Shown here: positions 23,602 through 64,000 of the stretch, in pieces
Layout of the letters: every line of letters starts with the position of its first letter
Numbering within the stretch: the first letter of the stretch is position 1
Assembly: GCA_016214885.1 (NCBI GenBank)
Contig: JACRMP010000015.1
Coordinates: forward strand, 13,420 to 77,419
DNA from: Candidatus Gottesmanbacteria bacterium
Lineage (GTDB): Bacteria > Patescibacteriota > Microgenomatia > UBA10105 > UBA927
DNA: 64,000 nt
Direction: 5' to 3'
The notes under the pieces: model-generated
Database searches by the model: none
The model's input: only the letters and a program-made list of their open reading frames with translations
What the model was told of the DNA's origin: nothing
Program-made: the position numbers and the translations under genes

Positions 23602-24351
23602 ATGAAAGGTGTCATACTTGCCGGAGGATTAGCCACGAGACTGCGTCCGCTTACTGCGGTAACCAATAAGCATTTACTGCCGGTATATAACAAGCCGATG
23701 ATTTATTATCCCCTGGAGATGATGAAGCGGATAGGGATGAAAGAAGTGCTTCTTATAACCAGCGGCGGTCATGTGGGTGATTTTGCCAACCTTTTGCTTT
23801 CGGGAGAAGAATTCGGGCTCCGGTTGTATTATGCCATTCAACAGAACCCGACGGGGGGAATTGCCGATGGCCTCAAGCTCGCTGAGGAGTTTGCGCATAA
23901 CGAACCTATCATGGTTATTTTAGGGGACAATATATTTAACTTTGATCTTACTGCTTCAATAAAGCGGTTTAATGACACCATAGAAAAGGATAAAAAAGGC
24001 GCAATGGTGTTTGGTGTGCATCGGGAAAAACTCGCCCAGCAGTATGGGGTTATCGAAATGGATAACGAGGGTAAGGTGATAAGCATCGAGGAAAAGCCGG
24101 AACACCCCAAGTCTGATATCGCCCAAACGGGCATTTATGTTTATGACAACAGGGTGTTTGATTTCACCAGAACGCTTAAACCCTCTGACCGCGGACAACT
24201 CGAAGTGACCGATCTTAACAATATGTATCTGGCTGAACACTCACTCATGTGCGAGCTTATAGATTGGTGGGTAGACGCAGGTACATCTCATGATGAATTA
24301 CTGCAGGCAAATGTGCAGGTTGCTGAATTTGTAAAACAAGGAAAACTCTAA
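23602..24351 (+). CDS. rfbA: glucose-1-phosphate thymidylyltransferase (short RmlA-type sugar nucleotidyltransferase)
   Basis: MKGVILAGGLATRLRPLT...KHLLPV nucleotidyltransferase N-terminus. Followed directly by rfbB. SD AAGGAG. Confidence 0.8.
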   Translation: MKGVILAGGLATRLRPLTAVTNKHLLPVYNKPMIYYPLEMMKRIGMKEVLLITSGGHVGDFANLLLSGEEFGLRLYYAIQQNPTGGIADGLKLAEEFAHNEPIMVILGDNIFNFDLTASIKRFNDTIEKDKKGAMVFGVHREKLAQQYGVIEMDNEGKVISIEEKPEHPKSDIAQTGIYVYDNRVFDFTRTLKPSDRGQLEVTDLNNMYLAEHSLMCELIDWWVDAGTSHDELLQANVQVAEFVKQGKL

Positions 24352-25367
24352 TGCGATTACTCGTAACCGGGGGAGCCGGATTCATAGGGGCAAACTTCAT
24401 CCTTTATTGGCTGAAGCATCATCCTGACGATGAGATAGTAAACTTCGATAAATTGACCTACGCCGGGAATTTGGAAAATTTGTCCAGTGTTGAAAAAAAT
24501 CCCCGCTACCGGTTTGTACAGGGGGATATTTGTGTATCAAAGGATGTTGTTGCCGCAATGGATGGCATCGATACGGTTGTTCATTTTGCCGCGGAAAGCC
24601 ACGTGGACCGTTCCATTCTTGAGGCGGCACCGTTTATCACCACAAATGTCACTGGCACTCAAGTGCTATTGGATGCTTCCCTCAAAGCAAAGGTAAAACG
24701 TTTCCATCATGTGTCAACAGATGAAGTGTTTGGCGCGCTGCCGCTTAATACGCCTGATAAGTTTAATGAGGCTACGGCATATGACCCCAGGAGTCCGTAT
24801 TCAGCTAGTAAAGCAGGATCGGACCATTTGGTGCGGGCATACTTCCACACGTTCGGACTCCCAGTCACTATAACCAATTGCTCCAATAATTACGGCCCAT
24901 TCCAGTTTCCGGAAAAACTTATTCCGCTTGCTGTCACAAATCTTCTGGAAGGCAGGAAAGTGCCGGTTTATGGGGATGGCAAATACGTGCGTGACTGGCT
25001 ATATGTCGATGACCATTGCAGGGCAATAGATGCAGTGCTCACCCGCGGACGCGTGGGGGAAACATATTGTGTGGGGGGGCTAACCGAAGATGTAGACAAC
25101 CTCACCATCATCAAAAATATTTTAACGATTATGGGTAAGGATGAGTCACAAATTGAATATGTCACCGATCGGCCGGGCCATGACCGCAGGTATGCAGTGG
25201 ACTGGACAAAAATTAATAAGGAGTTGGGATGGAAGCCGGAAAATGATTTCCAAACATGGCTCAATCTTACGGTTGCCTGGTATCGGGATCATGAGGATTG
25301 GTGGAAACGGGTAAAGAGCGGCGCGTATAAAGAATATTACGCAAAACAATACAAAAGCGCCTTATGA
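24351..25367 (+). CDS. rfbB: dTDP-glucose 4,6-dehydratase
   Basis: TGGAGFIG Rossmann motif, YSASK catalytic motif, RmlB-specific TNCSNNYGPFQFPEKLIP. Confidence 0.9.
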   Translation: MRLLVTGGAGFIGANFILYWLKHHPDDEIVNFDKLTYAGNLENLSSVEKNPRYRFVQGDICVSKDVVAAMDGIDTVVHFAAESHVDRSILEAAPFITTNVTGTQVLLDASLKAKVKRFHHVSTDEVFGALPLNTPDKFNEATAYDPRSPYSASKAGSDHLVRAYFHTFGLPVTITNCSNNYGPFQFPEKLIPLAVTNLLEGRKVPVYGDGKYVRDWLYVDDHCRAIDAVLTRGRVGETYCVGGLTEDVDNLTIIKNILTIMGKDESQIEYVTDRPGHDRRYAVDWTKINKELGWKPENDFQTWLNLTVAWYRDHEDWWKRVKSGAYKEYYAKQYKSAL

Positions 25368-25388
25368 CCGGGTAGTGAAACTTCAGAT

Positions 25389-25609: not shown

Positions 25610-26308
25610 ATGAAACTTCTGGGAACCGGCTTATCAGGGTTGGTTGGGTCGCGTATTGTGGCGCTTCTGTCACAGCATACATTCACCAATTTCAGCCTGG
25701 AAAACGGCGTTGATATAACCGACAGTGCTTCGATTACCCCCCGTATTACCGGTGACACTGATTCCCCTTGGGTATTGCACCTTGCGGCCTACACCAATGT
25801 CCAGCAGGCAGAGGCAGATGCGTTGTTGGGTGAGAATAGTACGGCGTGGAAGGTAAACGTCGCCGCTACCCAAACGCTCGTTGATGCATGCCGCATCACG
25901 GGCAAGCATTTGCTGTATATCGATACCGATTATGCATTTGACGGGGCTAAAGACGTATATTCTGAAGAGGACACACCGCATCCGCTGGGCTGGTACGCCA
26001 AGACTAAATCCGAAGGGGCAATCGCAGCAGCCATAGACGCACTCATGTCCCGCCAAGCCAGCGGTATCTATCATGTGGTGGGGAGTGAAGCCCTTTCTCC
26101 TTATATAGCTGCAGGTATTGTGGCAAAAACATACGGACTCGATGAAGCGCTAGTGAAGCCCACCACCTTTGCTTCTTATTTTGCAGGCAAAGCTCCAATT
26201 CCCCAAAAAGCCGTATTAACAAACGGAAAAATCCGTGCATTGGGGGTTAGCATGCGTGGGTTTGCTGACGGGGTTTCTGAGATGAAACGTCAGGAAGAGA
26301 ATTCCTGA
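25610..26308 (+). CDS. RmlD-like NAD(P)-dependent dTDP-4-keto-6-deoxyhexose reductase (short form)
   Basis: GTGLSGLVG Rossmann motif, VLHLAAYTNVQQAEAD, and catalytic YAKTK. These align to RmlD HxAAxTxVDxAE and YGKTK. Alternative upstream start at 25586. Confidence 0.55.
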   Translation: MKLLGTGLSGLVGSRIVALLSQHTFTNFSLENGVDITDSASITPRITGDTDSPWVLHLAAYTNVQQAEADALLGENSTAWKVNVAATQTLVDACRITGKHLLYIDTDYAFDGAKDVYSEEDTPHPLGWYAKTKSEGAIAAAIDALMSRQASGIYHVVGSEALSPYIAAGIVAKTYGLDEALVKPTTFASYFAGKAPIPQKAVLTNGKIRALGVSMRGFADGVSEMKRQEENS

Positions 26309-26362: not shown

Positions 26363-27658
26363 ATGACGATAGCATTTGTTGGTCACGGATATGTCGGTTT
26401 AGTAACTGCTGCTGTGTTTGCCGATTTAGGCAATACGGTATGGGTAGTCGGGAGAACGAAAGAGAAAATTGAACGGTTGAAAAAAGGCGACCCGCTTATT
26501 TATGAACCGGGACTTGACGAGCTCCTCAAGAGAAATCTTGCCGCAGGAAGGCTTAAATTTACCCTAGATTATAAGGAAGCGGTAGTAGCATCGGCTGTCA
26601 TATTTATCGCGGTAGGGACCCCTTCTAAGCCAAACGGCGAAGCGGATCTGAGTCAGGTATTTGCCGCCGCAGAAGAAATCGGCAAATCACTGGTAGGATA
26701 CAAAGTGGTGGTCACCAAGAGTACCGTACCTCCGGGAACGGGTAAGAAAGTCGCGGCAATTGTTGAGAAAGTGAAGCCGGACGGATCTTCGTTTGCGATC
26801 GCTTCATGTCCGGAGTTTCTCCGTGAGGGAACGGGGTTATCCGATACACTGCATCCTGACCGGGTAGTGATCGGCACCAATTCCGACCGGGCGCGCGATA
26901 TTCTGGTTGAGCTCCATAAATCCATCGACGGAAAAGCGGTACTTAGTAATGTAGAAACAGCCGAGCTTATTAAATACGCCTCAAACTCCATGCTGGCGAC
27001 TAAAATATCGTTTGCCAACGCCATTTCATTTTTGGCGGAGAAAGTGGGCGCTGATGTGGAAAAGGTACTCGAAGGCGTGGGTCTGGATAAACGCATCGGC
27101 AGAAGTTTTCTGTATCCCGGGGTGGGGTACGGCGGAAGCTGTTTTCCTAAAGATGTCAAAGCGCTTATCGCCATTGCGGGAGAATATGAGTATGACTTCA
27201 AGCTTCTGAGGGCTGTCCACGAAGTAAATAACGAAGCGAGGAGTAATTTTGTCGGAAAAATTGTCCAGCATTTTACCTCGCTTAAGGGAAAAACAATAGC
27301 CGTATTGGGATTGGCATTTAAGCCGGATACCGATGATATGCGCGAGGCGCCATCTACGGATATTATCCACTCGCTTATCGAGAAGGGTGCCAAAATTGCC
27401 GTATATGATCCCATCGCCATGAATAAGGCAAAAGAAAAGTTACCGTCAGGAATACGATTTGCCAAGGATCCGTACGATGCAGCCCGCGACGCGGATGCTG
27501 TGGCAATTGTCACCGAATGGAATGAATTCCGCCAGATCGATCTTGTACGTCTAGCCAAAGGCATGAAACATCTGGTATTATTTGATGGAAGAAACATTTA
27601 CGAGCCCGCGAGAGTGCGGGAGCTCGGCTTCATGTATTACGGTGTCGGTAGAATGTAA
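26363..27658 (+). CDS. ugd: UDP-glucose 6-dehydrogenase
   Basis: IAFVGHGYVGL N-terminal Rossmann, catalytic GGSCFPKDV, UDPG/MGDP dehydrogenase C-terminal domain. TATACT sits 8 nt upstream of the ATG. Confidence 0.85.
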   Translation: MTIAFVGHGYVGLVTAAVFADLGNTVWVVGRTKEKIERLKKGDPLIYEPGLDELLKRNLAAGRLKFTLDYKEAVVASAVIFIAVGTPSKPNGEADLSQVFAAAEEIGKSLVGYKVVVTKSTVPPGTGKKVAAIVEKVKPDGSSFAIASCPEFLREGTGLSDTLHPDRVVIGTNSDRARDILVELHKSIDGKAVLSNVETAELIKYASNSMLATKISFANAISFLAEKVGADVEKVLEGVGLDKRIGRSFLYPGVGYGGSCFPKDVKALIAIAGEYEYDFKLLRAVHEVNNEARSNFVGKIVQHFTSLKGKTIAVLGLAFKPDTDDMREAPSTDIIHSLIEKGAKIAVYDPIAMNKAKEKLPSGIRFAKDPYDAARDADAVAIVTEWNEFRQIDLVRLAKGMKHLVLFDGRNIYEPARVRELGFMYYGVGRM

Positions 27659-27679
27659 AAATTTTTAAGGAGGAAAGAT

Positions 27680-28636
27680 ATGGCCAAAAAAGCATTGATC
27701 ACCGGTATAGCTGGTTTTGTAGGAAGTCATATGGCAGAACTGCTTCTGTCACAGGGGTATGAGGTTTATGGGTTGAGCCGGCCGCGGAGCAAAATGGATC
27801 ACATTGAATCCATCAAGTCCAAAATCCAGCTTGAGGACGCGGATCTTTTGGATAGCCACAGTCTGTACACGACGATCAACAAAATCAGGCCGGATTATAT
27901 TTTCCATTTAGCCGCTCAGTCATTTGTTCCGACATCATGGGGGTCACCCGCCGTGACACTTGAAGTGAACATCGTGGGGAGTGCAAATGTATTTGAGGCC
28001 GTGCGACAGGTGGGGATTGACCCTGTGATTCAGATTGCCTGTTCTTCTGAAGAATACGGACTGGTACACGCAGACGAAGTACCGATAAAGGAAACCAATC
28101 CATTGCGTCCGCTTTCCCCATATGCGGTAAGCAAGCTTGCGATGGATTACCTGGGATACCAGTATTTTGAGTCATACAAGATGCGCATTATCCGAACCCG
28201 CGGATTTAACCATACTGGCCCGCGCCGCGGAGACACCTTTGCGGAATCCACGTTCGCAAAACAGATTGCCATGATAGAAAAAGGCAAACAGGAGCCGGTG
28301 ATTTATGTCGGCAACCTGGAAGCGGAACGTGATTACACCGATGTCCGTGATATGGTGCGTGCGTACTTATTGGCAGTAGATAAATGTGATGCGGGCGACG
28401 TATATAATATTTCGACCGGTACCGCGATAAAAATAGCTGACGTCTTAAAGCTCATGCTCTCCATGAGTAAGGTGAAAGTGGAGATCAAAGAGGATCCGAA
28501 ACGCATGCGTCCTTCCGATGTCCCGATACTTATCGGTGACAACTCCAAGTTTGTCGCCAAAACCGGATGGAAGCCGGAGATTCCCTTCACTAAAACCGCT
28601 GAGGATCTGCTCAACTATTGGCGCGAACGCGTTTAA
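27680..28636 (+). CDS. gmd: GDP-mannose 4,6-dehydratase (short form)
   Basis: Colinear with E. coli Gmd along its length: ALITGIAGFVGSH..., SSEEYGLV, PLSPYAVSK, NHTGPRRGDTF, GNLEAERDYTDVRD, GWKPEI. Confidence 0.8.
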   Translation: MAKKALITGIAGFVGSHMAELLLSQGYEVYGLSRPRSKMDHIESIKSKIQLEDADLLDSHSLYTTINKIRPDYIFHLAAQSFVPTSWGSPAVTLEVNIVGSANVFEAVRQVGIDPVIQIACSSEEYGLVHADEVPIKETNPLRPLSPYAVSKLAMDYLGYQYFESYKMRIIRTRGFNHTGPRRGDTFAESTFAKQIAMIEKGKQEPVIYVGNLEAERDYTDVRDMVRAYLLAVDKCDAGDVYNISTGTAIKIADVLKLMLSMSKVKVEIKEDPKRMRPSDVPILIGDNSKFVAKTGWKPEIPFTKTAEDLLNYWRERV

Positions 28637-28657: not shown

Positions 28658-29770
28658 ATGAAAGCCGTCATTATTCTGCCGACGTTTAACGAGCGGGAAA
28701 ACATTACCAGCATGCTCACTAAGCTGGTTACCGTGATGGCGACGGTGAAAGGATATACATACGCAATCCTTGTCGTTGACGATAATTCTCCTGACGGTAC
28801 TGCTGACGAGGTGCGTGAATTTGCCAAGAAGCACCCCAATATCCACATCCTTACCGGTAAGAAAGAGGGGCTAGGTAAAGCGCTTCTCCGGGGGATGACC
28901 CATGCCATCGATTCGATGCAGGCAGATGTTATTGCACAACTGGATGCCGATTTGTCCCATGACCCGTCGGCGTTGCCGAAGTTTTTTCAAAAAATCAGCA
29001 ATGGGGACGGTTTTGTGGTGGGTAGTAGATATATCCCCGGCGGATCCATTCCGGAAAACTGGGGTATTCACCGGAAAATTTTCAGTATTGTCGGAAACTC
29101 CATCGTGCGGTTCGGTTTGGGATTTCCGTATGTCCATGACTGGACGGGGGGATACCGTGTTTTCAGAAAAGAATATTTTGAGATGGCTAAACCAAAAGTG
29201 GCAAGATACAGCGGGTATGTTTATCAAATCGCATTTCTTCATAATGCGATCCTCGACGGCGCCAAAGTGGGGGAAGTTCCTATTCACTTTACCGACCGGA
29301 AATTCGGCCGAAGCAAAATTGCACCGCTCCAGTATATACGGAATGTTTTTCTTTATGTGGGGCGTGCGAGACTTCACCAGCTTCGTCACGGATCATTTGC
29401 TAAATTTGCCGTAGTGGGAACCGTAGGATTCACTATAAACACCACTATTTTGGAATTACTGGTACGAAGCGGATTCCATCCCGCTGTGGGAAGCGCCCTT
29501 GGCGCCGAGTGCGCAATTATTTCTAATTTTTTCTTTAACAACAGCTGGACATTCAAAGGTAAAAAAATACACGGCCTCCGCCTTATACCCAAGTTTTTGC
29601 AGTTTAATCTGACTTCATTGGGCGCCCTCCTTATCCAGTCGGGTACCGTGGCGTTTGGAACCTTTATGTTTGGGGAAGAAGTATACCGGTGGTTTTATCT
29701 ATTAGGGGTAGGTATCGGGCTTATCTGGAACTACACCATGTATTCGAAAGTAATTTGGAAGAATAAATAA
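28658..29770 (+). CDS. GT2 polyprenyl-phosphate glycosyltransferase (DPM1/CsbB/GtrB-like) fused to a C-terminal GtrA-like 4-TM domain
   Basis: PTFNEREN start, VVDDNSPDGT, and QLDADLSHDP DxD region match the GT2/DPM1 signature. A C-terminal 4-helix GtrA-like domain follows (FAKFAVVGTVGF...LLIQSGTVAFG). Confidence 0.8.
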   Translation: MKAVIILPTFNERENITSMLTKLVTVMATVKGYTYAILVVDDNSPDGTADEVREFAKKHPNIHILTGKKEGLGKALLRGMTHAIDSMQADVIAQLDADLSHDPSALPKFFQKISNGDGFVVGSRYIPGGSIPENWGIHRKIFSIVGNSIVRFGLGFPYVHDWTGGYRVFRKEYFEMAKPKVARYSGYVYQIAFLHNAILDGAKVGEVPIHFTDRKFGRSKIAPLQYIRNVFLYVGRARLHQLRHGSFAKFAVVGTVGFTINTTILELLVRSGFHPAVGSALGAECAIISNFFFNNSWTFKGKKIHGLRLIPKFLQFNLTSLGALLIQSGTVAFGTFMFGEEVYRWFYLLGVGIGLIWNYTMYSKVIWKNK

Positions 29771-29772
29771 GC

Positions 29773-31356
29773 ATGACGACATTTATACGGCGTCTCACCC
29801 CATACATCCCCGTAATCATTCTAGTCTGTATTTTGCTGTTAGGGGCATACCTCAGGCTTTATAAAATTTCCGAGTATATGACATTTCTTGGAGATGAAGG
29901 CAGGGATATGCTGGTCATTAAACGGATGATTGTGGATCATAAGTTTACCCTTCTGGGGCCGACAGCCTCGGTAGGCGGATTTTTTCTGGGACCTATTTAT
30001 TATTATTTCATGCTCCCGTTTGTGTGGGTTTCCGGCCTTAATCCGGCGGGGGCGGCGGTCATGGTTGCATTGTTTGGTATAGCCACAATCTATGCCGTAT
30101 ATCGGTTGGGGCGTGACGCCTTTGATGAATGGGTGGGGCTTACAGCAGCATCTTTATACGCGGTGTCACCTGTGGTTATCGCGTATTCCCGTTCATCGTG
30201 GAACCCCAATCTGGTGCCGTTTTTTTCGACCGTACTAATATACCTCTTATGGAGATCGGTTGTCAGAACTGAACCCCGTTTATTGTTTTGGATTGGTATT
30301 TGTCTCGGTATCGGATTACAGCTTCATTATTTGTTTCTTTTCCTGTTTCCTGTTGTGGGGGTATGGTTCCTCTTGTACGGGCGTAAAAAGGGATGGCTCA
30401 TCCATTACGGATACGGTGTGGTAGGATTTCTCGTAGGGTATGGACCGTTTTTGGCATTTGAGCTCCGCCACGGATTCCCCAATACTATTTCTATAATAAA
30501 TTTTTTGCGTGAAGGGGAGGGGACAGGGCTTGTAGTTTCTACTTTTTGGAATAACATAGTTGATGTTTCGTACCGGTTGTTCGGGCGTCTGGTTTTTAGA
30601 CTTCCGCCGCCTGAGCAAATGCGTGATCTTGCCGTTTGGCAGCAAACAGCATGGTCGTATACGGTAACCTCATCTATCGCTGTTTCTATTGGTCTTTTGG
30701 TGGCCTGGGCTTCCCGGTTATTCAGCGCTCCCTGGTTAACTAAGAAAAAAGAAGAGTCTGCCGTGCTTGCTAAAGCCGCGGTATTATTGTTACTTTGGCT
30801 ATTTGTTCCCTTGGTGCTTTTTGGATTTTATAAAAAGGGAATATACGATTATTACTTCGGTTTATTCTTTGTCCTGCCGTTTTTGTCTGTGGCACTTATC
30901 CTTCGGGTTCTTAAAACGAGTAAACTCGGGCAATTGATTGCTTACGTCATACTGCTGGGGCTATTATATTTGAATTGGGAAGGAAGACCTTTTAAATTTA
31001 TCCCGAATAATCAGTTGGCGCAGGCGCGAGCGATAGCAAAAGTGGCTTTCGAAAAAACTGACGGTAAACCGTATAATTTTGCATTAATAACAAGCGGTAA
31101 CTCCGATCATGCATACCGGTACTTTTTTGAGATCTGGGGTAATCCTCCAACACCTATCGAGAATGAAGTTATTGATCCGGAAAGGAAAAGTGTAACTGAC
31201 CAGCTCATTATTATCTGCGAGCAGCCGGAATGTAAACCATTGGGGCATCCGCTATGGGAAATCGCCGGGTTCGGCAGGGCAGAAATCGTCGGCGAGTGGC
31301 CGGCATCTTTTGTGAAGGTCATGAAATTAGTACACTACAAAGAGGGCGGCTTATGA
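29773..31356 (+). CDS. GT-C-fold membrane glycosyltransferase, ArnT/PMT-like (paralog group D)
   Basis: ~12 TM with an FLGDEGRD loop motif after TM1. Paralog of 59878-61380, which has FLGDQGRT. Confidence 0.6.
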   Translation: MTTFIRRLTPYIPVIILVCILLLGAYLRLYKISEYMTFLGDEGRDMLVIKRMIVDHKFTLLGPTASVGGFFLGPIYYYFMLPFVWVSGLNPAGAAVMVALFGIATIYAVYRLGRDAFDEWVGLTAASLYAVSPVVIAYSRSSWNPNLVPFFSTVLIYLLWRSVVRTEPRLLFWIGICLGIGLQLHYLFLFLFPVVGVWFLLYGRKKGWLIHYGYGVVGFLVGYGPFLAFELRHGFPNTISIINFLREGEGTGLVVSTFWNNIVDVSYRLFGRLVFRLPPPEQMRDLAVWQQTAWSYTVTSSIAVSIGLLVAWASRLFSAPWLTKKKEESAVLAKAAVLLLLWLFVPLVLFGFYKKGIYDYYFGLFFVLPFLSVALILRVLKTSKLGQLIAYVILLGLLYLNWEGRPFKFIPNNQLAQARAIAKVAFEKTDGKPYNFALITSGNSDHAYRYFFEIWGNPPTPIENEVIDPERKSVTDQLIIICEQPECKPLGHPLWEIAGFGRAEIVGEWPASFVKVMKLVHYKEGGL

Positions 31357-33276: not shown

Positions 33277-33607
33277 TCCCAACAACGATAAGGAATTGTA
33301 CTACGATAAGCATGCCATTGATGGCAATAATGGGTTTTTCCCGGTGAAGTATACCGTAATAAAGCCAAAAACAAGATGCGAGAAGAAATCCTGTCCATGA
33401 TATAAGCGAGACACCCCCGGTGTCGGGAACAGTCCAAACTGAGACAAGCTGGGGGATATTGACGGCAACGGTAAGAGCCCCCATAAGATATGCTGATTTA
33501 TCGATAAAGGTGATAAGATTTTTTTTGCCGCTTTTGCCGTGTTTATGTGTTTTTACAGCGTGATGAAATCCTGTCTGCATACGTAAAATCAGTGTAGCAC
33601 ACTGCAT
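33263..33607 (-). CDS. SemiSWEET (PQ-loop) small sugar transporter
   Basis: C-terminal 74 aa form 3 TM with the PQ motif (VNIPQLVSVW) and WLYYGIL, closely matching bacterial SemiSWEETs. The true start is probably the internal Met near 33484. Confidence 0.55.
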   Translation of the reverse strand: MQCATLILRMQTGFHHAVKTHKHGKSGKKNLITFIDKSAYLMGALTVAVNIPQLVSVWTVPDTGGVSLISWTGFLLASCFWLYYGILHREKPIIAINGMLIVVQFLIVVGIISR

Positions 33608-55602: not shown

Positions 55603-57977
55603 AGTCTCTTTTTTTGTATGATGAGGAGCAATATAATTGTCGCACCTAGGCTAGCGGCACTCAAGAGTATACCCAGGGTGACACTGAAGGGTGCATAGAT
55701 CATGATAACTTCATGTTTGCCTGAAGGAACGTTAATTCCCCGCATGGTCCAATTTACCCGCGCTATAGCGGTGGGTTTGCCGTCTACGGTTGCAATCCAT
55801 CCGGGGTAAAACGTATCCGTCACGACCAGTGTTCCTGACACAGAACTCTCTGTTTTGACCATAACCCTCTCAGGTTCGTAAGAGGTGATGGCAGCGCTTC
55901 CTGTGGCAGGGAAGCCTTTGACTATACTTACCCCCTCAGGGAAAAGGGCGGTGGTAATGGGATTAAATCCATCAGAAAAAAATATGTCGGTGAAATCCCT
56001 GCTATTTTCATATGTTTTTGATTCTCCTGCAACGAATGCGCGGGGAAGAGCCTCGGTATTTTCATATATTGCCCAGTCGTCGAAGCTGTGGATTTTTTTG
56101 ATGACGTGGGGAGGATACGTCTGTTCACTGCTGGCGTTTTCCATCCGATCCAGAATATACCTGACACTGAGGGCGCTTAACACTTTCCGCTTCGTTTCAT
56201 CGGAGAGACCGCCGTCCCCGAACCGGGATGAGATGGCTGCGTCGGAGCGCGATGCGTTGTCAAATATTTCCATGAGCTGGCCGTTTCTGTATGCATACAA
56301 AAACTCACCGTACCACTTGGGATACAGGGGATCATATCCTTCCGGTGAAAAAAGACGGTATTGCGACGCAAAGTTTGCGCTTATATTTGCCGTTCCGTAG
56401 CCCCAGTACCGCCCTAATTGGGCAGAAGACAGGTATGCTATCGTTTTGTGTTCGGGGAACACGAGCTCTTTTGACACAAACGGATTAAACCGGTTGAAAA
56501 ACACAAAAAGATCCATGACATGGATGACTAATAGTACGGTTATGGCTAACGTGCGCATTTTCGGGAGCGCAATAGCAATCCAGAATAAGCCCAATGTGGC
56601 TGCAGACAAAGCCATTCCGTATATGAGAGCCCGTACTGCCACGCCTGCATGGAGCGACAGCTCCGGGGTAAACGGAAGTTTGGTGCCGATAAACAATACG
56701 GCGAAGATTCCCGCCACCTCGATAGTTCTTCTGAATAGTTTTTTAAGCGAGTGCTTATCACGCATCCAGAAGTCTAAGCCTAAACCGCACATCATGGAAA
56801 GTGAGAATGCCAGTAAAAATGACATAAGCGTAGGGCTGCTGGAGGTGAAAAGAGGAATCGGCACCCGATAGAGAATCTGTGTAATCGGATTAGTGGTAAG
56901 GAGTAGTGCGGTGGTCAGCACTGCCAGGATAAACCATTTGGATATCGTATCTTTCCGGCGCAGCGCTGACAGTGAAAAGAATAGCGGAATAAGTCCTATG
57001 GTGGTCACCTTCCCCACAAAGGTATCGCTTGGCCAATAGGTGCGGGTTGCCGGGTTGCCGAATAGATTGGGGAAGGGAAGCGCAAACAACTGACCCGGAT
57101 GGATGAGTATTTTTGCAAATAGATTACCCGGATCATGCGGGCTCCTGGCAGCATGACTGACAAGTTCCATACCGGGGACAACCTGAATGCCCGCAATTCC
57201 GATTCCTAGTGCGGTAAATCCGAGTAAATACGGCCACATAGTTCGGTGCATCCTGAACAATCCGTAGGTGACAGAAAATGCACAGGCATATGCATAGACC
57301 TGGGGGTGTCCAGCAAGAAGCGACATGACGTGGGACAATGTGTATATGCCGAGCCATAGCGGGCTGATTCGTTCCCGTAAGTGTTCTATGGCAAGCAGTA
57401 TGAGTGGGAGCCATAGAACGACGTGGCCTATGGTGTTGTATTCAAGCCAGACTGCCATAAATCCGGAGAATCCGTATGAAGTCGCGGCCAACCAGCTTCC
57501 TAGTGGTCTCATGCCGATTTTTCTGCTAAAGAGATAGGTAAAAAGAACCGCAAGCAGTGGTTGGGTGATCACCAGGATAGTCCATGCGTCAATCTGCGCC
57601 ATGAACAGGTAGAGAATGCCCAGGGGATATACGGCGGCACTTTGGAAGTTTGCAAGGAGCGGGGAGCCGGAAAAATTATACGGATTCCAGAGGGGTAGCC
57701 GTCCTTTCTGAAGCGAATTTATTACTGCCGTTTTCCACGGGTACATTTGACGGATGGTGTCGGGGTATTGCGCCTTGTTGGGTATCCCGCCCGCACCGTA
57801 CCCCAAGTAGGAAGTTGACCGCCACGGCTGGAAGTCGCTTACCAGAATATCCCCGGGGAACGGGACTTTACCACGGAATACAGTCTGATAAAAAAACAGG
57901 GAAATAACGGCAGAAAGTATAACAAGAACCAACATCCATTCGTTTCGTTTCATACCGGGTAGTAGAGCTTCTGGCAA
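55599..57977 (-). CDS. YfhO-family GT-C membrane glycosyltransferase (group B, 792 aa)
   Basis: VPFPGDIL...MYPWK...LPLWNPYNFSGSP N-terminus, and C-terminal DTFYPGWIATVDGKPT...PSGKHEV plus a TM anchor. Confidence 0.65.
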   Translation of the reverse strand: MPEALLPGMKRNEWMLVLVILSAVISLFFYQTVFRGKVPFPGDILVSDFQPWRSTSYLGYGAGGIPNKAQYPDTIRQMYPWKTAVINSLQKGRLPLWNPYNFSGSPLLANFQSAAVYPLGILYLFMAQIDAWTILVITQPLLAVLFTYLFSRKIGMRPLGSWLAATSYGFSGFMAVWLEYNTIGHVVLWLPLILLAIEHLRERISPLWLGIYTLSHVMSLLAGHPQVYAYACAFSVTYGLFRMHRTMWPYLLGFTALGIGIAGIQVVPGMELVSHAARSPHDPGNLFAKILIHPGQLFALPFPNLFGNPATRTYWPSDTFVGKVTTIGLIPLFFSLSALRRKDTISKWFILAVLTTALLLTTNPITQILYRVPIPLFTSSSPTLMSFLLAFSLSMMCGLGLDFWMRDKHSLKKLFRRTIEVAGIFAVLFIGTKLPFTPELSLHAGVAVRALIYGMALSAATLGLFWIAIALPKMRTLAITVLLVIHVMDLFVFFNRFNPFVSKELVFPEHKTIAYLSSAQLGRYWGYGTANISANFASQYRLFSPEGYDPLYPKWYGEFLYAYRNGQLMEIFDNASRSDAAISSRFGDGGLSDETKRKVLSALSVRYILDRMENASSEQTYPPHVIKKIHSFDDWAIYENTEALPRAFVAGESKTYENSRDFTDIFFSDGFNPITTALFPEGVSIVKGFPATGSAAITSYEPERVMVKTESSVSGTLVVTDTFYPGWIATVDGKPTAIARVNWTMRGINVPSGKHEVIMIYAPFSVTLGILLSAASLGATIILLLIIQKKRL

Positions 57978-58200: not shown

Positions 58201-59832
58201 TTACGATTTTTTGCGTATTCCCAATGCATATAACGCCGCGGCGGCTATAAGAGAGAATAATGTTACCGTTTCTGCGATACGCCGCACCGGCGACTCCTCC
58301 CATACTACACGGACATGATGGGTTCCCCCGGGCAAACGGAAAGTGATAAGCCCCCTCCAATTTTGATCCTGGAATTCTACCGGAATTTTTTTGCCCCCCG
58401 CATACACCCGCCAGCCGGGGAAATACTGGGTGCGGTCAACTACCTGGACGTCATTTGCAGCTGTTACCGTGAATGTATGAAGGGTTCCTTTTTTAACGGG
58501 ATTACTGATGGTACCTGTCCCTCCCACAATTTCAAAACGGTTTTCGGGATACGATCCTGCGGGGCCTGCTGACCAGATAACATCCGTTTCCCCGAAGTAT
58601 GTGGTGTTCAGAGGATAATCCCAAAAATACCGTTCATCGATTTTATCCATCCCCAGCGGCGGACGGAAATACACCGCAGTCGAGGCAACGGTCATCGTTA
58701 TCAATATGACAATAAGATACAAAGGCGTCTTTTTGTTGATGTATACTACTCCACCAAGAATAGCCAGGGAAAATGCAGTAATATTAAGAAGCCTCCACGG
58801 AAACTGGAACATCCGCAGGATGGGGATATTAGTCCAGAGAAATTGGGAAACGGGCTGCATGACAAAAAGAGCTAATCCTGTTAAAAAGAGCGCAAACCAT
58901 ACCGTCTTTTTTTCGGTAGCACTGTTTATTTTTTTCCGGAGGATAAGAGTAATCGCATAAAAAAGCGACACTACCTGGGTGAGCCCCAACGAAACGGCTA
59001 TGCCGCCTGTTTGGAGACTTGCGGCATTAGTGAGGTTGGGGATAAAAAAATTAACAAACGGTGCAAAGTGTGATTTATACATGTCCTTCATAAATAAATC
59101 GCCGTAGGTATACCGTCGTTCAATAATTGCGGGTATCCAATAAAAGGCGGACAAAGTGAGTCCGAGGGTAAGACCCATAAACCCCTCGATACGTTTTTGG
59201 TGGTTAGGGCTGAACAGAAGCACAAACAGGGTAATGACCCCGAAAAATACGAGGCTTATGGCATTGTGGGAAGTGATAAGAAGCAGGGTGGAAACTCCGG
59301 TAAACAGTACGTTAAGGTAGCTGTTATTTTGTGTAAATCCACGGGTGACGGCATACAGCACCAATGGAAGGAATGCCAGCGCATAGCCCTCAGCCATGTC
59401 GCCGCGTACTAAAAGGTCGATCAGATGAAATGGGGCAAACTGGTAGAGTATGGTCGCAAGCAGTGCTTTCCCTTCATGTTTGAAAAACCGCAGACTGAAA
59501 AGGTACATGAAAATCCCTGAAAGCAAAAAGCTTACCGTAAGGGAAATTTTGAATGCAAAAACCAATCCGCCACCCAGGGCGACAACCGCAGAGGCGACTA
59601 CATACGGAACATGGTAAATAAAGTTGAATAGCGGCATACCATAGCCGTAATTGAGTTCGCCTGCCCACCGCGGGAGAATCTGTCCTTCGGACAACGCTTT
59701 ATAGTAGGCGGCAATACGGGCGAAATGAACAGGGCTGTCGTGTGTATGGGGGGCCAGATCAGTGATAAAAAGGGATATAAACGGGAGAAGCGAAATTGCA
59801 ATAACAAGGATATAGTGCTTAAATGATTTCAT
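58201..59832 (-). CDS. YfhO-like GT-C membrane glycosyltransferase (group A, 543 aa)
   Basis: HTHDS...EGQILPRW...GYGMP N-terminus, and C-terminal TQYFPGWRVYAGGKKI...GGTHHV plus a TM anchor. Confidence 0.6.
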   Translation of the reverse strand: MKSFKHYILVIAISLLPFISLFITDLAPHTHDSPVHFARIAAYYKALSEGQILPRWAGELNYGYGMPLFNFIYHVPYVVASAVVALGGGLVFAFKISLTVSFLLSGIFMYLFSLRFFKHEGKALLATILYQFAPFHLIDLLVRGDMAEGYALAFLPLVLYAVTRGFTQNNSYLNVLFTGVSTLLLITSHNAISLVFFGVITLFVLLFSPNHQKRIEGFMGLTLGLTLSAFYWIPAIIERRYTYGDLFMKDMYKSHFAPFVNFFIPNLTNAASLQTGGIAVSLGLTQVVSLFYAITLILRKKINSATEKKTVWFALFLTGLALFVMQPVSQFLWTNIPILRMFQFPWRLLNITAFSLAILGGVVYINKKTPLYLIVILITMTVASTAVYFRPPLGMDKIDERYFWDYPLNTTYFGETDVIWSAGPAGSYPENRFEIVGGTGTISNPVKKGTLHTFTVTAANDVQVVDRTQYFPGWRVYAGGKKIPVEFQDQNWRGLITFRLPGGTHHVRVVWEESPVRRIAETVTLFSLIAAAALYALGIRKKS

Positions 59833-59877: not shown

Positions 59878-61380
59878 ATGAGCAAGGTGCGCGCGATTGA
59901 TTGGGTTAAGGTTGGAATTATTTATATAGCCACACTACTCCGGGTGTACAGGCTTGATTCACTCACCGAATTTTTGGGAGACCAAGGCAGGACGATGCTT
60001 GTTATGCGCCGATTTATAGAAGACGGCGTTGTCCCGCTGTCGGGGCCCACTACCCTGAGCGGACATAATCTTGGTCCCATATTTTATTATCTGCTTGCCC
60101 CCGGTTATCTTATTTCCCATGGCCCGTTTGGTGTATCCATGTGGAGTGCTCTATTAGGAGTTTTGTCGGTTGCTATCCTTTACCGGGCTGTTACCCTGAT
60201 GTTTGGCATATGGCCAGCAAGGGTGGTTTCGCTTCTATGGGCGGTGTCTCCTGTTATTATTTCTGCTGACCGCACTATCTGGGAGCCTAATCTGGTGCCG
60301 CTTTGGTCAGTGCTGTTTATCTTTCTATTATATAGGGCATACCGGAAATGGCACGGTATCCTTTGGGTAGGAGTGGGAGCCTCGGTAGGAGTGCTTATCC
60401 AGCTTCATTATCCGAATATATACTTCTTGGGGCTTACTGCCTTGGCCTTGGCAGGGGCAAAGATATACCGCAAAAAAAGCAATAACGATATATTTCGGAG
60501 TCTAATATGGTGTACGGGGGGATTTGTCGCAGTGTTGCTTCCGTTTCTTTGGTATGAGTTTACGGTGGGATTTAAAGATATCACCGGAATTGCATCTATA
60601 ATAGCCGACGGAGCGGGTGCCACGATGGGCAAGCGCGTCATGCTCTGGCAAAGCCTTGATTACAGCTACCGCGTATTAGGAAGAATGATTCCTGAAATGA
60701 GCAGGATTCCGGCGGCGGTACTCCTTTTGTTGTGGGGAATATTTGTGTTGTTCCGCCCGACGCCCAAAAATATATTTTTTTCGCTTTGGTTTGCCGGAGG
60801 AATTGCCGCAATGGTGCGGTATGCGGGAGTTGTCCACGATCATTATTTGTTTTTCCTTACCCCCGTTCCGTTTTTTATGCTCGCCTCGGTGGTATCGTCG
60901 GTGACCAATCCTGTTTGGAAAAAAGCAGTTTTACTTTGTTTAACCGGGCTTATTCTGTATCAATTTATGCAGACAGACATCGCAGACTACGGGAAAAATG
61001 ACCTTGCACGGGTAAGCATGGCGGTTGCCAGGATGAAAGCGGATGCAGGGCAAGAGCGTTTTTCATTTACCCTCATTAACACCAGATCATTTTCCGATCT
61101 TCATTACCGGTATTATATGCGTGTAATGGGGGTGACTCCCATGCCGGTCGGGGAAGCTAATTACCGGAAGCTATATGTTATGTGCGAGAGTTCCCGCTGT
61201 CCTACTGTTACCCAAATCACCTCTATCACTACGTTGCCGGTGCTTTGTTATGACGAGCACTGTGCTGATACCTACACAGGTATTCCCCTGTGGGATTCCT
61301 GGTCATATATCCGCCATGAGCGTGTAGTGGATAGTGGGCGTATTCTGGGAACGCTGTATGTATTCGAGCGCCGGCAGTGA
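59878..61380 (+). CDS. GT-C-fold membrane glycosyltransferase, ArnT/PMT-like (group D)
   Basis: Paralog of 29773-31356 (FLGDQGRTMLV, ...WEPNLVPLWS...). Confidence 0.6.
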   Translation: MSKVRAIDWVKVGIIYIATLLRVYRLDSLTEFLGDQGRTMLVMRRFIEDGVVPLSGPTTLSGHNLGPIFYYLLAPGYLISHGPFGVSMWSALLGVLSVAILYRAVTLMFGIWPARVVSLLWAVSPVIISADRTIWEPNLVPLWSVLFIFLLYRAYRKWHGILWVGVGASVGVLIQLHYPNIYFLGLTALALAGAKIYRKKSNNDIFRSLIWCTGGFVAVLLPFLWYEFTVGFKDITGIASIIADGAGATMGKRVMLWQSLDYSYRVLGRMIPEMSRIPAAVLLLLWGIFVLFRPTPKNIFFSLWFAGGIAAMVRYAGVVHDHYLFFLTPVPFFMLASVVSSVTNPVWKKAVLLCLTGLILYQFMQTDIADYGKNDLARVSMAVARMKADAGQERFSFTLINTRSFSDLHYRYYMRVMGVTPMPVGEANYRKLYVMCESSRCPTVTQITSITTLPVLCYDEHCADTYTGIPLWDSWSYIRHERVVDSGRILGTLYVFERRQ

Positions 61381-61427: not shown

Positions 61428-62699
61428 ATGTTAAGCAGTGTAATAGACTCGGTGCTTCTTTTTGCGTTTTCGATCCCCGTTGTCATGCAATACCGGATTC
61501 TTCCGGTTGACGGTACTCCATACTGGCTGTTCGGTTTGTTGTTCTTGATGCTGACCCTTCACTGTTTCGTGTCACTTTATCCTGAGGTGCTTGGCCGCTG
61601 GAAGAAACAAGCCGCCAAACTTAAGATGTTTTTTTTGATAACTACGCTCGTAATAACCCTGGGGGGAGCGAGTGTTACCGCTATGTTCGACCGGGCGCGC
61701 ACCGCCCCCGTTTACGGCGTCCACGACATCATTCTTCAGCAGGAGTCCGCTATGCGGTATCTTATCGTAGGGAAAAATCCGTATAAAGAAACATATTTTG
61801 GCACCCAGGTAGAAAGCTTCCGTTATGCGGAGCTGGGGCGCGATGCAGTTAACCCGGCGCTCTACCACTTCGTCATGCCGCCGTGGTATCTGTTGTTTCC
61901 GTATATTTTTTACTACACGTCAATACCGGTGCTGGGATTTTTTGACGGGAGAATGGCGCTTCTTTTCACCATGGTGATGCTGCTTGTTTTTGTCTGGTTT
62001 TGGCTCAAAGACAAAGCGCTTGCCAGGGTAGCAATAGTACTCACTGCATTGTCACCTTCTGTTGTCGATTATTTTGTGGAGGGCAGGAGCGATGTGTTTG
62101 CATTGTCCTGGCTTATGGGGGCAATGGTGCTTCTTGCTAACAGGCGGTATGTACTAAGTGGTGTGGTATTGGCATTAGCACTCCTTAGCAAACAAACCAT
62201 ATGGTTTGTGGTCCCCTTTTACGGTGTGTATCTGTGGCAGGAGACTGCTAATTCCAGAGTTATCTTTTGGAAGACTGCCGCTGCCTGTGCCGCAGTGAGT
62301 GTCATATTGGTTCTCCCGTTTGTGATGTGGGACAGTAACGCTTTCATGAACAGTGTTGTTTTTTACCTTACAGGCAATACTGCAACGAGTTACCCTGTTT
62401 CGGGGTACGGGCTCGGAATGATGCTGTATGATTTTGGAGTAATTCGCGATATCCATGCGTATTATCCGTTTATTTACTGGCAGATAGGGATAGCACTGCC
62501 TGTTTTTATCACCCTTGTTTATTGGTTGTGGCGGAAGCCTTCAGCATCACGGCTTATCATATCGTATGCGGTTTTTCTGATGGTATATTGGTATTTAAGC
62601 CGGTATTTCAATAACAGCCATTTGGGATATCTATCCATGCTGTTTGCCCTGGGAGTACTTAAAGCAGTGGATGAAAAAAATCTCCATGAAACAAATTAA
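61428..62699 (+). CDS. polytopic membrane protein, GT87/DUF2029-like putative glycosyltransferase
   Basis: ~11 TM. Loop motif VEGRSDVFALSWLMGAMVLL...LLSKQTIWFVVPFY resembles that of 32134-33276. Confidence 0.4.
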   Translation: MLSSVIDSVLLFAFSIPVVMQYRILPVDGTPYWLFGLLFLMLTLHCFVSLYPEVLGRWKKQAAKLKMFFLITTLVITLGGASVTAMFDRARTAPVYGVHDIILQQESAMRYLIVGKNPYKETYFGTQVESFRYAELGRDAVNPALYHFVMPPWYLLFPYIFYYTSIPVLGFFDGRMALLFTMVMLLVFVWFWLKDKALARVAIVLTALSPSVVDYFVEGRSDVFALSWLMGAMVLLANRRYVLSGVVLALALLSKQTIWFVVPFYGVYLWQETANSRVIFWKTAAACAAVSVILVLPFVMWDSNAFMNSVVFYLTGNTATSYPVSGYGLGMMLYDFGVIRDIHAYYPFIYWQIGIALPVFITLVYWLWRKPSASRLIISYAVFLMVYWYLSRYFNNSHLGYLSMLFALGVLKAVDEKNLHETN

Positions 62700-64000
62700 C
62701 CGCACCGCCATACTGCTTTTTATAGTGCTGTTGGCTGCATTTTTTTTGCGTACATACCGGATTACCGTAAATCCGCCGGCCATATCATGGGATGAAGCGT
62801 CTATAGGGTATAACGCATACACGATTCTCACCACAGGCCGGGATGAACACGGTAAATTTTTGCCGCTTGATACCTTTGCTGCTTTCGGTGACTACAAGCC
62901 GCCGGTGCCGATATACCTCACCGTTCCGTTTGTAGCAATTTTCGGATTGGGAGAACTTGCCGTGCGGTTGCCATCGGCGCTGGCAGGAGTGCTCACCGTT
63001 TGGGTGTTATTTTTGCTGACCGCCGAATTATTCCGTGAATCCAAGTACGCTAAAACGATAGGTCTGACGAGTTCTCTGCTTCTGACGCTCACACCCTGGC
63101 ACATTATGCTTTCCCGGGCAGGATTTGAGGCAAATATCGCCTTATTGTTTCTGGTTACCGGTATTCTTTTTGTGCTGAAAGGGAGGAGTAGTCCTCATTA
63201 TTTTTATATCGCATGGCTGCCGTTTGTCATGGGTATATATACCTTTAACAGTACGCGTTATGCAGGCCCTCTTATTGCCGTGTCTCTTCTTATTTTGATC
63301 AGAAAACACCTCATTCCCGCTAAAAAACAGGTACTTATGGGATTTGTTATAGCACTCATTGCCCTTATTCCCATAGCTCCGCATCTCGTCTCTAAACAGG
63401 CACGTCTCCGGTTTGAGGAAGTCAGTATATTCACCGATTTACGTACGGTGTTAACGTCCAACGAGCGGCGTAAAGCCGATGCATTTGCCCCATGGGCTGA
63501 TATTCTTCATAACAGAAGAGTGGGGTATGCACGCGAATATTTTGTCCACTTTTTTGACAATTTGGAACCGAGATTTCTGTTTATGACCGGGGACGGCAAT
63601 CCGAAGTTCTCCATCCAGGACACAGGACAATTGTTACTTGTGACAGCACCGTTTGTGCTTCTTGGGTGGCTTATGGTGTTTAAGGATTTTCCGGTTGCCG
63701 GATGGTTTCTTCTGTGGTGGCTTGTGGCAGCTATTGCGCCATCTGCGGTTGCCCGTGAAACGCCTCATGCGCTCCGTATTGAAAACGGTTTACCCGTTTA
63801 TATGATGGTGACGGCATACGGCTTGGTGATGGGAGTTCTCGGTGTAGCACAAAGGAAACGGATTATTGGAATGCTTTTTCTTGCTGCTTTGATCTTGGGG
63901 AATTTTTCCTATTTCTGGCATAACCTGATGGCGCATTACCCGAAAGAATATTCCGGAGAATGGCAGTACGGGTATAAAAATGCCATAGAAGTTGCCCGCA
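62686..64000 (+). CDS. GT39/GT83-like (ArnT/PMT_2 family) GT-C membrane glycosyltransferase (group C), 3' end outside window
   Basis: Frame is open from the ATG at 62686 to the window end. ISWDEASIGYNAYTILTTGRDEHG DE-loop motif. It is missed by the ORF track because no stop falls in the window. Confidence 0.65.
   Translation, partial: MKQINRTAILLFIVLLAAFFLRTYRITVNPPAISWDEASIGYNAYTILTTGRDEHGKFLPLDTFAAFGDYKPPVPIYLTVPFVAIFGLGELAVRLPSALAGVLTVWVLFLLTAELFRESKYAKTIGLTSSLLLTLTPWHIMLSRAGFEANIALLFLVTGILFVLKGRSSPHYFYIAWLPFVMGIYTFNSTRYAGPLIAVSLLILIRKHLIPAKKQVLMGFVIALIALIPIAPHLVSKQARLRFEEVSIFTDLRTVLTSNERRKADAFAPWADILHNRRVGYAREYFVHFFDNLEPRFLFMTGDGNPKFSIQDTGQLLLVTAPFVLLGWLMVFKDFPVAGWFLLWWLVAAIAPSAVARETPHALRIENGLPVYMMVTAYGLVMGVLGVAQRKRIIGMLFLAALILGNFSYFWHNLMAHYPKEYSGEWQYGYKNAIEVAR

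Follow-up and report, generated by a model that had tools for sequence, protein, structure and literature searches.

Introduction

In multi-component transmembrane glycosylation, a glycosyltransferase (GT) of the GT-A fold makes a C55-phosphate-linked sugar, a flippase moves the sugar and an enzyme of the GT-C fold transfers it outside; the described GT-A/GT-C pairs number three in B. subtilis and, sharing one flippase, three in L. lactis (PMC8035078). In the mycobacterial pathway to phosphatidylinositol mannosides, lipomannan and lipoarabinomannan (PIM, LM and LAM), polyprenyl-phosphate-mannose feeds many linkage-specific GT-C enzymes outside the membrane (PMC12041525). Here, we report a locus of this general kind in a 64,000-nucleotide stretch of DNA from Candidatus Gottesmanbacteria bacterium (assembly GCA_016214885.1, contig JACRMP010000015.1, positions 13,420 to 77,419 of the forward strand), which is called the window throughout. 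A conserved chromosomal locus of an uncultivated, Gottesmanbacteria-like member of the Microgenomates, a group within the Candidate Phyla Radiation (CPR), begins at position 23602 of the window; it is at least 57 kb long, and its left 40 kb fill positions 23602-64000. The locus probably serves to make a complex glycan of the cell surface, most of the synthesis taking place at the outer face of the cytoplasmic membrane by means of an assembly line of GT-C enzymes.

The closest described systems are GtrABC, CsbB-GtcA-YfhO, ArnC-ArnEF-ArnT and the CsdAB/CD/EF enzymes of L. lactis. They and the locus have in common a family-2 GT (GT2) of the polyprenyl-phosphate-sugar-synthase type, a GtrA-type or Wzx element, and a GT-C enzyme with an acidic residue in its first loop, and both YfhO and PMT_2 enzymes are used for the last step. 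The organisms described have about three GT-A/GT-C pairs, whereas here 15 GT-C genes accompany three synthases (21 accompany four in the whole locus), contiguously, in a genome of ~1 Mb and with no free-standing GtrA found. The pathways to PIM, LM, LAM and arabinogalactan (Ppm1; PimE, MptA/B/C, Pmt, EmbA-C, AftA-D) resemble the locus in that few donors serve many GT-C enzymes for elongation and branching; genes g9 and g29 (Table 1) and one gene downstream of the window are MptA_B/GT87-like, and AftD and AftA are among the top fold matches. In mycobacteria the genes lie at dispersed sites of a 4.4-Mb genome, whereas here there is one locus, which gives no sign of a phosphatidylinositol anchor, arabinofuranose donors or a mycolate context, and the identity is at the superfamily level only.

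In the lumen of the endoplasmic reticulum (ER), the ALG, PMT and PIG enzymes likewise combine one lipid-linked donor with many linkage-specific GT-C enzymes. The likeness to this system, and to its archaeal counterpart built on dolichyl-phosphate-mannose (Dol-P-Man), lies in g6, which matches a Dol-P-Man synthase (DPMS) over its full length, and in g23, which is predicted to fold like ALG12, ALG3, ALG9 and Pmt4; the difference is that the present locus is bacterial and that the likeness of its GT-C enzymes is structural only. With Wzx/Wzy loci it shares genes for nucleoside diphosphate (NDP) sugars, several GT2 and family-4 (GT4) enzymes, a methyltransferase and Wzx (two in the whole locus), but in the window a Wzy, a chain-length regulator, a WaaL or LCP ligase and a priming phosphoglycosyltransferase domain were not detected. 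The streptococcal Pgf/GtrB-type O-glycosylation of Ser/Thr-rich proteins is comparable in that PgfS is the best NCBIfam match of g8 and g13 and the GT-C partners are of the PMT_2 type; however, Pgf has two GT-C enzymes against 15-21 here, and the PgfS scores lie far under the cutoff.

Results

Extent and gene content of the locus

All 31 genes between 23602 and 64000 are devoted to glycan synthesis, as judged from the open reading frame (ORF) listing and from Pfam, NCBIfam and PDB searches by which each gene was assigned to a family. They are tightly packed, with frequent 4-nt overlaps, and lie mostly on the + strand, gX and the g24-g27 block being on the minus strand. The 15 polytopic GT-C genes take up 25.1 of the 40.4 kb (62% of the DNA). 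Upstream of 23.4 kb the window carries housekeeping genes (DsbA-like proteins, a MacB/HlyD ABC system, RuvB, a signal peptidase, a release factor, FtsEX and t6A enzymes), and the GC content shows no shift across this boundary; hence, the left edge at 23602 is correct, and the locus is a core chromosomal one rather than a compositional or foreign island.

To the right, the locus runs at least 17 kb beyond 64000, as is seen in two contigs (L007, 4490-14503; L085, 3588-21659). L007 shares four complete proteins with the window, namely g27-g29 and as much of g30 as the window contains, and in all four the sequences are the same; L085 is a near-identical assembly that extends L007; both contain the complete form of g30 (539 aa), which the window end cuts. 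After g30 there follow, in order, two PMT_2 group a genes, one of group b, a PTPS_related gene, a GT2, a 180-aa protein, an MptA_B-like gene, a second PTPS_related gene, a second GT4, a fourth DPM-like GT2, a second Wzx, a DegT aminotransferase, a further short-chain dehydrogenase/reductase (SDR) and a further GT2. The whole locus thereby totals 21 GT-C genes (six of them beyond the window), four donor-synthase-like GT2 genes, nine PMT_2 genes and two Wzx genes, and its share of the genome is ~5%, judged from relatives' contigs of 0.99-1.23 Mb. Assemblies made independently from several sequencing runs overlap on parts of the locus, agree in gene order and are 98.4-99.9% identical to the window (e.g. 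ENA ERZ21828318 contig-100_7, 242 kb, in which the locus starts near position 71,370); SRR22387876 and SRR12113407 are among the source samples.

A first-pass annotation of the window, which a model had made from the letters, had placed a glycan locus here, with the left edge that the housekeeping genes upstream confirm. Its estimate of about 40 genes comes down to 31, and its right end at 64000 gives way to a continuation of at least 17 kb. Family searches reproduced its seven GT2 enzymes, three of them of the DPM1/CsbB/GtrB type (g6, g8 and g13), and its single GT4, Wzx, SemiSWEET and methyltransferase genes; the ~15 polytopic GT-C genes in at least five paralogue groups proved to be 15 genes in eight groups. 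Six PMT_2 genes were found where it had counted four ArnT/PMT-like ones, and its six YfhO-like genes divide into three true YfhO members (g18, g20 and g26) and three PTPS_related-type relatives, one of which is split by a TGA. As for the NDP-sugar supply, the RmlA-like, RmlB, Ugd and RmlD-like enzymes were found again, the last being truncated, but the gene called gmd is actually Rmd-like; the GT2-GtrA fusion is real (g6), but the label of small flippase is not secure, the architecture being that of a DPMS.

The GT-C fold and its catalytic acid

All-against-all BLAST sorts the 15 GT-C proteins into eight paralogue groups, within which identity is 25-33%. The PMT_2 (PF13231) cutoff of 26.1 bits is passed by all six proteins of that family (g7, g10, g24, g25, g28 and g30). 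The YfhO (PF09586) cutoff of 28.5 bits is missed by g11 (16.4 bits), by the intact form of this gene in strain L008 (16.0 bits) and by g12 (10 bits); g10b+g11, g12 and g27 are relatives of YfhO and not members, as BLAST (1e-5) and an hhalign comparison with a paralogue of this group from downstream indicate. In homologues that are 55-90% identical to g29, PF09594 or PF26314 is found; PF13231 also occurs among its close homologues, and some of these are named 'glycosyltransferase 87 family protein' by NCBI.

For the two least annotated families, those of g23 and of PTPS_related (g27), structure prediction supports a GT-C fold. The top fold matches of the g23 model are ALG12, ALG3, ALG9 and Pmt4, whereas those of the g27 model include the oligosaccharyltransferases AglB, STT3 and PglB; PIGU/GAB1 also occurs in the fold-match lists. 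No member of the STT3/AglB/PglB sequence family of oligosaccharyltransferases was detected, so that the likeness of the GT-C enzymes is structural only.

The first outer loop of GT-C enzymes has the catalytic acidic residue at its tip (PMC12041525). An Asp or Glu in this loop, after the first transmembrane helix (TM1), is present in 15 of the 15 proteins and conserved in all eight groups. D32, E33 and D35 are invariant among 35 sequences of the g23 family, and so is the pair H31-D32 among 33 PTPS_related sequences; D60 (numbering of g18) is found in 76 of 77 YfhO sequences, D39-E40 in 127 of 128 PMT_2 sequences of group a and D41 (g7) in 26 of 26 of group b. The smaller PMT_2 group c, MptA_B-like and GT87-like groups (3, 9 and 11 sequences, respectively) have conserved acids as well. 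The full D-E pair occurs in five of the six PMT_2 proteins, g28 having D-Q, and group b conserves the Asp only. The 15 proteins are polytopic GT-C-fold transferases with a first-loop acidic residue, the fold of the g23 and PTPS_related families being a predicted one.

By sequence alone, g23 gave nothing in Pfam, noise in a phmmer search of the PDB and only the transmembrane noise of GABA receptors in a profile search of the PDB; only structure prediction resolved the fold. Its family is sizeable, with 164 clusters at 50% identity (E<=1e-30; 1.84 billion representatives searched), one homologue having a precomputed PF26265 match. The invariant motif after TM1 reads H-x4-D-E-x-D, and some distant members are longer by ~140 aa at the N-terminus, for a total length of 670-690 aa.

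The two ORFs g10b and g11 (99 aa and 428 aa) lie in the same frame, and each aligns with one part of g12 and g27, g10b with the N-terminal and g11 with the C-terminal part. The gene is intact (529 aa) in the 99.85%-identical strain L008, which reads CCC GGA (Pro-Gly) in place of the window's CCT TGA, a difference of two adjacent substitutions. The GGA in that strain raised the possibility that the TGA at 35519 is recoded to Gly, as in genetic code 25; this was rejected because more genes in the window truly end in TGA (28 of 55) than in any other stop codon.

Conservation across the Microgenomates

A scan with the g23 profile, with one genome per species, found 76 loci in Gottesman-, Levy-, Roizman-, Woese- and Daviesbacteria. 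Classification of their ORFs by comparison with the window proteins showed 4-12 GT-C genes within 20 kb in most of the longer loci. The homologues are named Patescibacteria or Candidatus Gottesmanbacteria, within the Microgenomates group. The gene order of the Gottesmanbacteria loci is that of the window, GT2-GT2-GT2-YfhO-GT4-YfhO-GT2-MTase-g23-PMT2-PMT2-YfhO-PTPSr-PMT2-GT87 (MTase, methyltransferase; PTPSr, PTPS_related). One of them (L013) has a collinear one-to-one orthologue for each of g15-g29, at 48-77% identity, and most other Gottesmanbacteria loci examined are similar. Because paralogues share 25-33% identity and orthologues 48-77%, the duplications must be old, predating the radiation of the group, with every copy retained. 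The copy number of PMT_2 group a ranges from 1 to 6 between lineages.

The unclassified neighbours in the related loci, once clustered, consist of more GT4, Wzx, PMT_2, DUF2079 and DUF2304 proteins and one FAD oxidoreductase; no acceptor, LCP, Wzy or priming enzyme is among these clustered neighbours. The DUF2304 small membrane protein recurs in five related loci (example scanned: L045, 7240-7599), and none was seen in the window. DUF2304 is the family to which GacJ belongs; in S. pyogenes this protein is the membrane partner of the soluble GT-A enzyme GacI and activates it.

Donor synthases, chain-building enzymes and flippases

The seven GT2 genes in the window are g6, g8, g13, g15, g16, g17 and g21, and three of these are, by homology, polyprenyl-phosphate-monosaccharide synthases (g6, g8 and g13). 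The first aligns end to end, its four-helix transmembrane (TM) domain included, with the Dol-P-Man synthase of Pyrococcus furiosus (PDB 5mlz; 3.3e-43). Since the fusion of GT2 and GtrA is the known architecture of this archaeal enzyme, the TM domain of g6 is not demonstrably a flippase. The top NCBIfam matches are PgfS and ArnC for g8, and PgfS, AglJ and Dol-P-hexose transferase for g13; the PgfS scores of g8 and g13 are 65 and 39 bits against a cutoff of 500.

The remaining GT2 enzymes (g15, g16, g17 and g21) and the GT4 enzyme look like ordinary cytoplasmic chain-building enzymes, and the top NCBIfam matches of g15, g16 and g17 contain no polyprenyl-phosphate-synthase signature. A free-standing GtrA was not found in the window, where the GtrA_DPMS_TM domain occurs only as the C-terminal part of g6; a Wzx-type flippase, g14, is present. 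A complete Wzx/Wzy-dependent pathway was not found, as Wzy_C, Bac_transf and Glycos_transf_4 occur in no gene of the island. The small membrane protein gX lies antisense within the operon, overlaps the end of g9 by 14 nt and could serve in sugar import or in the handling of lipid-linked sugars.

Sugar-nucleotide supply

The start of g1 was taken from the gene call in contig L001. Its top NCBIfam match is rmlA, at 234 bits and thus under the equivalog cutoff of 360. Compared with four near-identical contigs (L001, L002, L004 and L005), g3 lacks 173 bp at 26021, and the resulting frameshift leaves 232 aa instead of 290; the intact 290-aa RmlD is encoded in L001 and L002, and the 173 bp are also present in L004 and L005. 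Direct repeats flanking the missing segment were looked for and none was found; the gap could be a true strain deletion or an assembly error. The SDR encoded by g5 scores 194 bits against the Gmd equivalog TIGR01472 (cutoff 415), and its nearest solved relative is Rmd (PDB 2pk3; 1.7e-84). No RmlC (dTDP-4-dehydrorhamnose 3,5-epimerase) domain was found among the window ORFs searched. A complete and intact RmlABCD set is thus lacking: RmlB passes its cutoff, the RmlA-like protein falls below, RmlD is frameshifted and RmlC was not found. With no RmlC beside the RmlA-like, RmlB and RmlD-like proteins, the dTDP-sugar may not be L-rhamnose, or rmlC may sit elsewhere.

Table 1. Genes of the locus within the window. 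Bit scores are from Pfam or NCBIfam searches and E-values from PDB or BLAST searches.
Gene	Coordinates	Strand	Assignment	Evidence
g1	23602..24351	+	RmlA-like short-form sugar-1-phosphate nucleotidyltransferase, 249 aa	NTP_transferase 188 bits
g2	24351..25367	+	dTDP-glucose 4,6-dehydratase RmlB	TIGR01181 476 bits (cutoff 365)
g3	25610..26308	+	RmlD-like reductase, truncated	RmlD_sub_bind in two stretches
g4	26363..27658	+	UDP-glucose 6-dehydrogenase Ugd	all three UDPG_MGDP_dh domains
g5	27680..28636	+	GDP-sugar SDR, Rmd-like (GDP-6-deoxy-D-lyxo-4-hexulose reductase type)	
g6	28658..29770	+	GT2 with GtrA/DPMS TM domain, putative archaeal-type polyprenyl-phosphate-hexose synthase	Glycos_transf_2; GtrA_DPMS_TM 64.9 bits
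g7	29773..31356	+	GT-C, PMT_2 group b, paralogue of g28	PMT_2 41.3 bits
g8	31353..32105	+	soluble GT2, polyprenyl-phosphate-sugar synthase-like	PDB: ArnC 3e-14, then DPMS, GtrB
g9	32158..33276	+	GT-C, MptA_B/GT87-like	precomputed PF26314 MptA_B_family match; GT87 23.0 bits, just under cutoff 25
gX	33263..33607	-	SemiSWEET/PQ-loop small membrane protein	MtN3_slv 27.4 bits (cutoff 23.7)
g10	33678..35201	+	GT-C, PMT_2 group c	PMT_2 43.5 bits; D37-E38 after TM1
g10b+g11	35222..36811	+	single PTPS_related/YfhO-like GT-C gene	in-frame TGA at 35519-35521
g12	36808..38460	+	GT-C, PTPS_related group	BLAST 2e-41 to g27; HDD motif after TM1
g13	38432..39181	+	soluble GT2, polyprenyl-phosphate-sugar synthase-like	PDB: DPMS 5mlz 1.6e-14, then GtrB
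g14	39168..40619	+	Wzx-type flippase	Polysacc_synt_3 178 bits
g15	40616..41521	+	generic cytoplasmic GT2	Glycos_transf_2
g16	41518..42438	+	generic cytoplasmic GT2	Glycos_transf_2
g17	42413..43174	+	generic cytoplasmic GT2	Glycos_transf_2
g18	43167..45479	+	GT-C, YfhO	102.8 bits (cutoff 28.5)
g19	45461..46528	+	GT4 (GT-B)	Glycos_transf_1 and Glyco_transf_4
g20	46532..48781	+	GT-C, YfhO	63.6 bits
g21	48794..49711	+	GT2	Glycos_transf_2 85 bits
g22	49718..50581	+	S-adenosylmethionine-dependent methyltransferase	Methyltransf_23 104.9 bits
g23	50606..52318	+	GT-C-fold protein (predicted)	no match in local Pfam-A scan
g24	52328..53971	-	GT-C, PMT_2 group a	PMT_2 44.7 bits
g25	53968..55602	-	GT-C, PMT_2 group a	PMT_2 37.8 bits
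g26	55599..57977	-	GT-C, YfhO	81.2 bits
g27	58201..59832	-	GT-C, PTPS_related	PF10131 47.5 bits (cutoff 26.4)
g28	59878..61380	+	GT-C, PMT_2 group b	PMT_2 31.1 bits
g29	61428..62699	+	GT-C, GT87/MptA_B-like	GT87 22.5 bits, under cutoff 25
g30	62686..64000	+	GT-C, PMT_2 group a, cut by window end	PMT_2 43.7, PMT 33.8 bits

Discussion

We favour an assembly line of four steps. In the first, cytoplasmic enzymes would supply dTDP-6-deoxyhexose, UDP-glucuronate and GDP-6-deoxyhexose. In the second, the generic GT2 and GT4 enzymes and the methyltransferase would build an oligosaccharide on a polyprenyl carrier, to be flipped by Wzx. In the third, the three DPM1/ArnC/GtrB-like GT2 enzymes (four in the whole locus) would load single sugars onto polyprenyl phosphate, and these products would be flipped as well. 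In the last, the 15 GT-C enzymes of eight groups (21 in the whole locus) would transfer the lipid-linked sugars to acceptors outside by means of their first-loop Asp or Glu. Most of the GT-C enzymes would be linkage-specific steps, and one is probably the ligase or oligosaccharyltransferase for the Wzx-flipped unit; the resemblance of the PTPS_related model to AglB, STT3 and PglB fits this idea. The ratio of GT-C enzymes to donor synthases, about 5:1 both in the window and in the locus, together with paralogues that are old and individually conserved, argues for sequential assembly rather than pairwise decoration.

Several points weigh against the assembly line. The first is that the same ratio is also compatible with many alternative decorations of one polymer. 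The second is that this strain has broken copies of rmlD and of one PTPS_related paralogue, which shows that not every gene is indispensable. The third concerns the donor side: the best NCBIfam matches of g6, g8 and g13 (ArnC, PgfS, AglJ, Dol-P-hexose transferase and PpgS) all score far below their equivalog cutoffs and so name no sugar for any of the three, and the sole GtrA-type domain belongs to the synthase in the closest solved homologue. The fourth is that family searches found no Wzy, WaaL, LCP or priming phosphoglycosyltransferase domain in the window; some GT-C enzymes may therefore fill the ligase role, and the priming enzyme would be encoded elsewhere. Finally, the size of the locus is a lower bound, since it still continues at the equivalent of window position ~80.7 kb and its right boundary lies further on.

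In the pairwise or combinatorial alternative, single sugars would be added by alternative GT-C enzymes to a teichoic-acid-like or rhamnan-like polymer made elsewhere, giving a strain-variable surface for phage evasion or host matching. We consider this possible but not probable. The parts list is indeed that of the CsbB-GtcA-YfhO, GtrABC and Csd systems; near-identical strains differ by the premature stop in one GT-C paralogue and by the rmlD deletion, and the copies of PMT_2 group a vary between lineages. In the known systems, however, there is one GT-A per GT-C (PMC8035078), against ~5 GT-C enzymes per synthase here, and across Gottesmanbacteria each paralogue has its own collinear orthologue, unlike a set of variable cassettes. 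Nor were TagF, LtaS or ABC-exporter-type genes for a backbone polymer seen in the window. The first-pass annotation had proposed combinatorial decoration of a surface polymer or of surface proteins, following a CsbB-GtcA-YfhO/GtrABC-type logic at a GT-C density beyond that of described systems. The logic holds, as its parts (a GT2 synthase, a GtrA-type TM domain or Wzx, and GT-C) are present, and so does the density, with 15-21 GT-C genes here against about three pairs in described organisms; the decoration itself draws some support from the strain differences, but a sequential assembly line fits the ~5:1 ratio at least as well. Nothing that this annotation had named as refuting its reading was observed: the membrane proteins have a GT-C fold (predicted for two families), every family keeps a first-loop acid and the locus is unsplit in sister genomes.

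The main purpose of the locus might instead be protein glycosylation, with the PMT_2, PTPS_related and YfhO enzymes O- or N-glycosylating S-layer, pilin or other secreted Ser/Thr-rich proteins, which we judge rather unlikely. The six PMT_2 genes (nine in the whole locus) with the D-E motif of PMT and ArnT would suit this role, as would the predicted fold of g27; g8 and g13 match PgfS and AglJ, which are donor synthases of protein-glycosylation systems, and secreted CAP-domain and DUF5656 proteins are encoded just upstream. Yet fold and family cannot separate protein from glycan or lipid acceptors, ArnT, AftD and Emb being equally close, and no obvious acceptor gene is conserved inside the locus; a gene for acceptor synthesis was likewise not recognized in the window or its conserved neighbours. 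On present evidence the acceptor may be a glycan, a lipid or a protein, as the first-pass annotation had anticipated in calling it unreadable from the sequence.

That many of the membrane paralogues are inactive (transporters, decaying duplicates or non-catalytic GT-C-fold subunits like PIGU) is very improbable. One paralogue is interrupted by a stop, PIGU/GAB1 is among the fold matches, and g9, g12 and g29 fall below the Pfam gathering cutoffs; against this, the acids at the catalytic position are 99-100% conserved in families of at least 26 sequences and without exception in the smaller ones, different species retain orthologues that are 48-77% identical, and a strain with 99.85% identity has an intact version of the broken copy. 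It is hardly credible, even for a metagenome assembly, that the cluster is a chimera of the assembly process or a mobile island of recent origin, given the independent assemblies with the same gene order at 98.4-99.9% identity, the flat GC content across the boundary, the synteny in many named metagenome-assembled genomes, the lack of tRNA genes and Rfam RNAs in scans of the window and of any integrase or transposase among the scanned window ORFs; horizontal acquisition was rejected on the flat GC content, the housekeeping flanks and the conserved synteny.

Returning to the assembly line, every part of the locus belongs to a known superfamily and its logic is known, so that it is not categorically new. 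What is new is that as many as 21 GT-C genes stand together in a single locus of a ~1-Mb genome, that the locus is conserved across the Microgenomates and that it includes a member of a sizeable unannotated GT-C family. Our literature search found nothing that links CPR, Patescibacteria or Microgenomates with GT-C or YfhO enzymes, which is absence of evidence only as few subscription-journal papers were covered. That at least 57 kb (~5%) are kept in a stripped-down CPR/Patescibacteria genome suggests that the product is likely to be central to the envelope, perhaps in host attachment or phage resistance. A much more tentative proposal is that Gottesman-, Levy-, Roizman-, Woese- and Daviesbacteria might build their main envelope glycan or lipoglycan almost wholly outside the membrane: a contiguous, lineage-wide line of more than 20 GT-C enzymes, the unannotated g23 family included, would work with archaeal/eukaryote-type polyprenyl-phosphate-sugar synthases as a counterpart of the ER-lumen and mycobacterial LAM pathways, would take up ~5% of a ~1-Mb genome and would make a glycan central to the episymbiotic surface. 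The locus is also a compact natural library of GT-C enzymes (eight groups, one without a Pfam family) for studies of acceptor and linkage specificity, and it supplies specific genes to seek in metatranscriptomes and specific targets when the glycans of enrichment cultures are analysed.

Other features of the window

Directly upstream of the locus, positions 22371-23587 encode a secreted CAP-domain protein and an 82-aa DUF5656 protein, in all strains. A 270-aa DsbA/thioredoxin-like ORF at 7208-8020 matches the Pfam profiles in swapped order, residues 72-140 corresponding to the C-terminal part and residues 179-268 to the N-terminal part, a pattern that points either to two partial domains or to a rearrangement; another DsbA-like gene is located at 2349-3536. 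At 10220-12019, a signal peptidase S26 domain is found inside an unusually long ORF of 599 aa.

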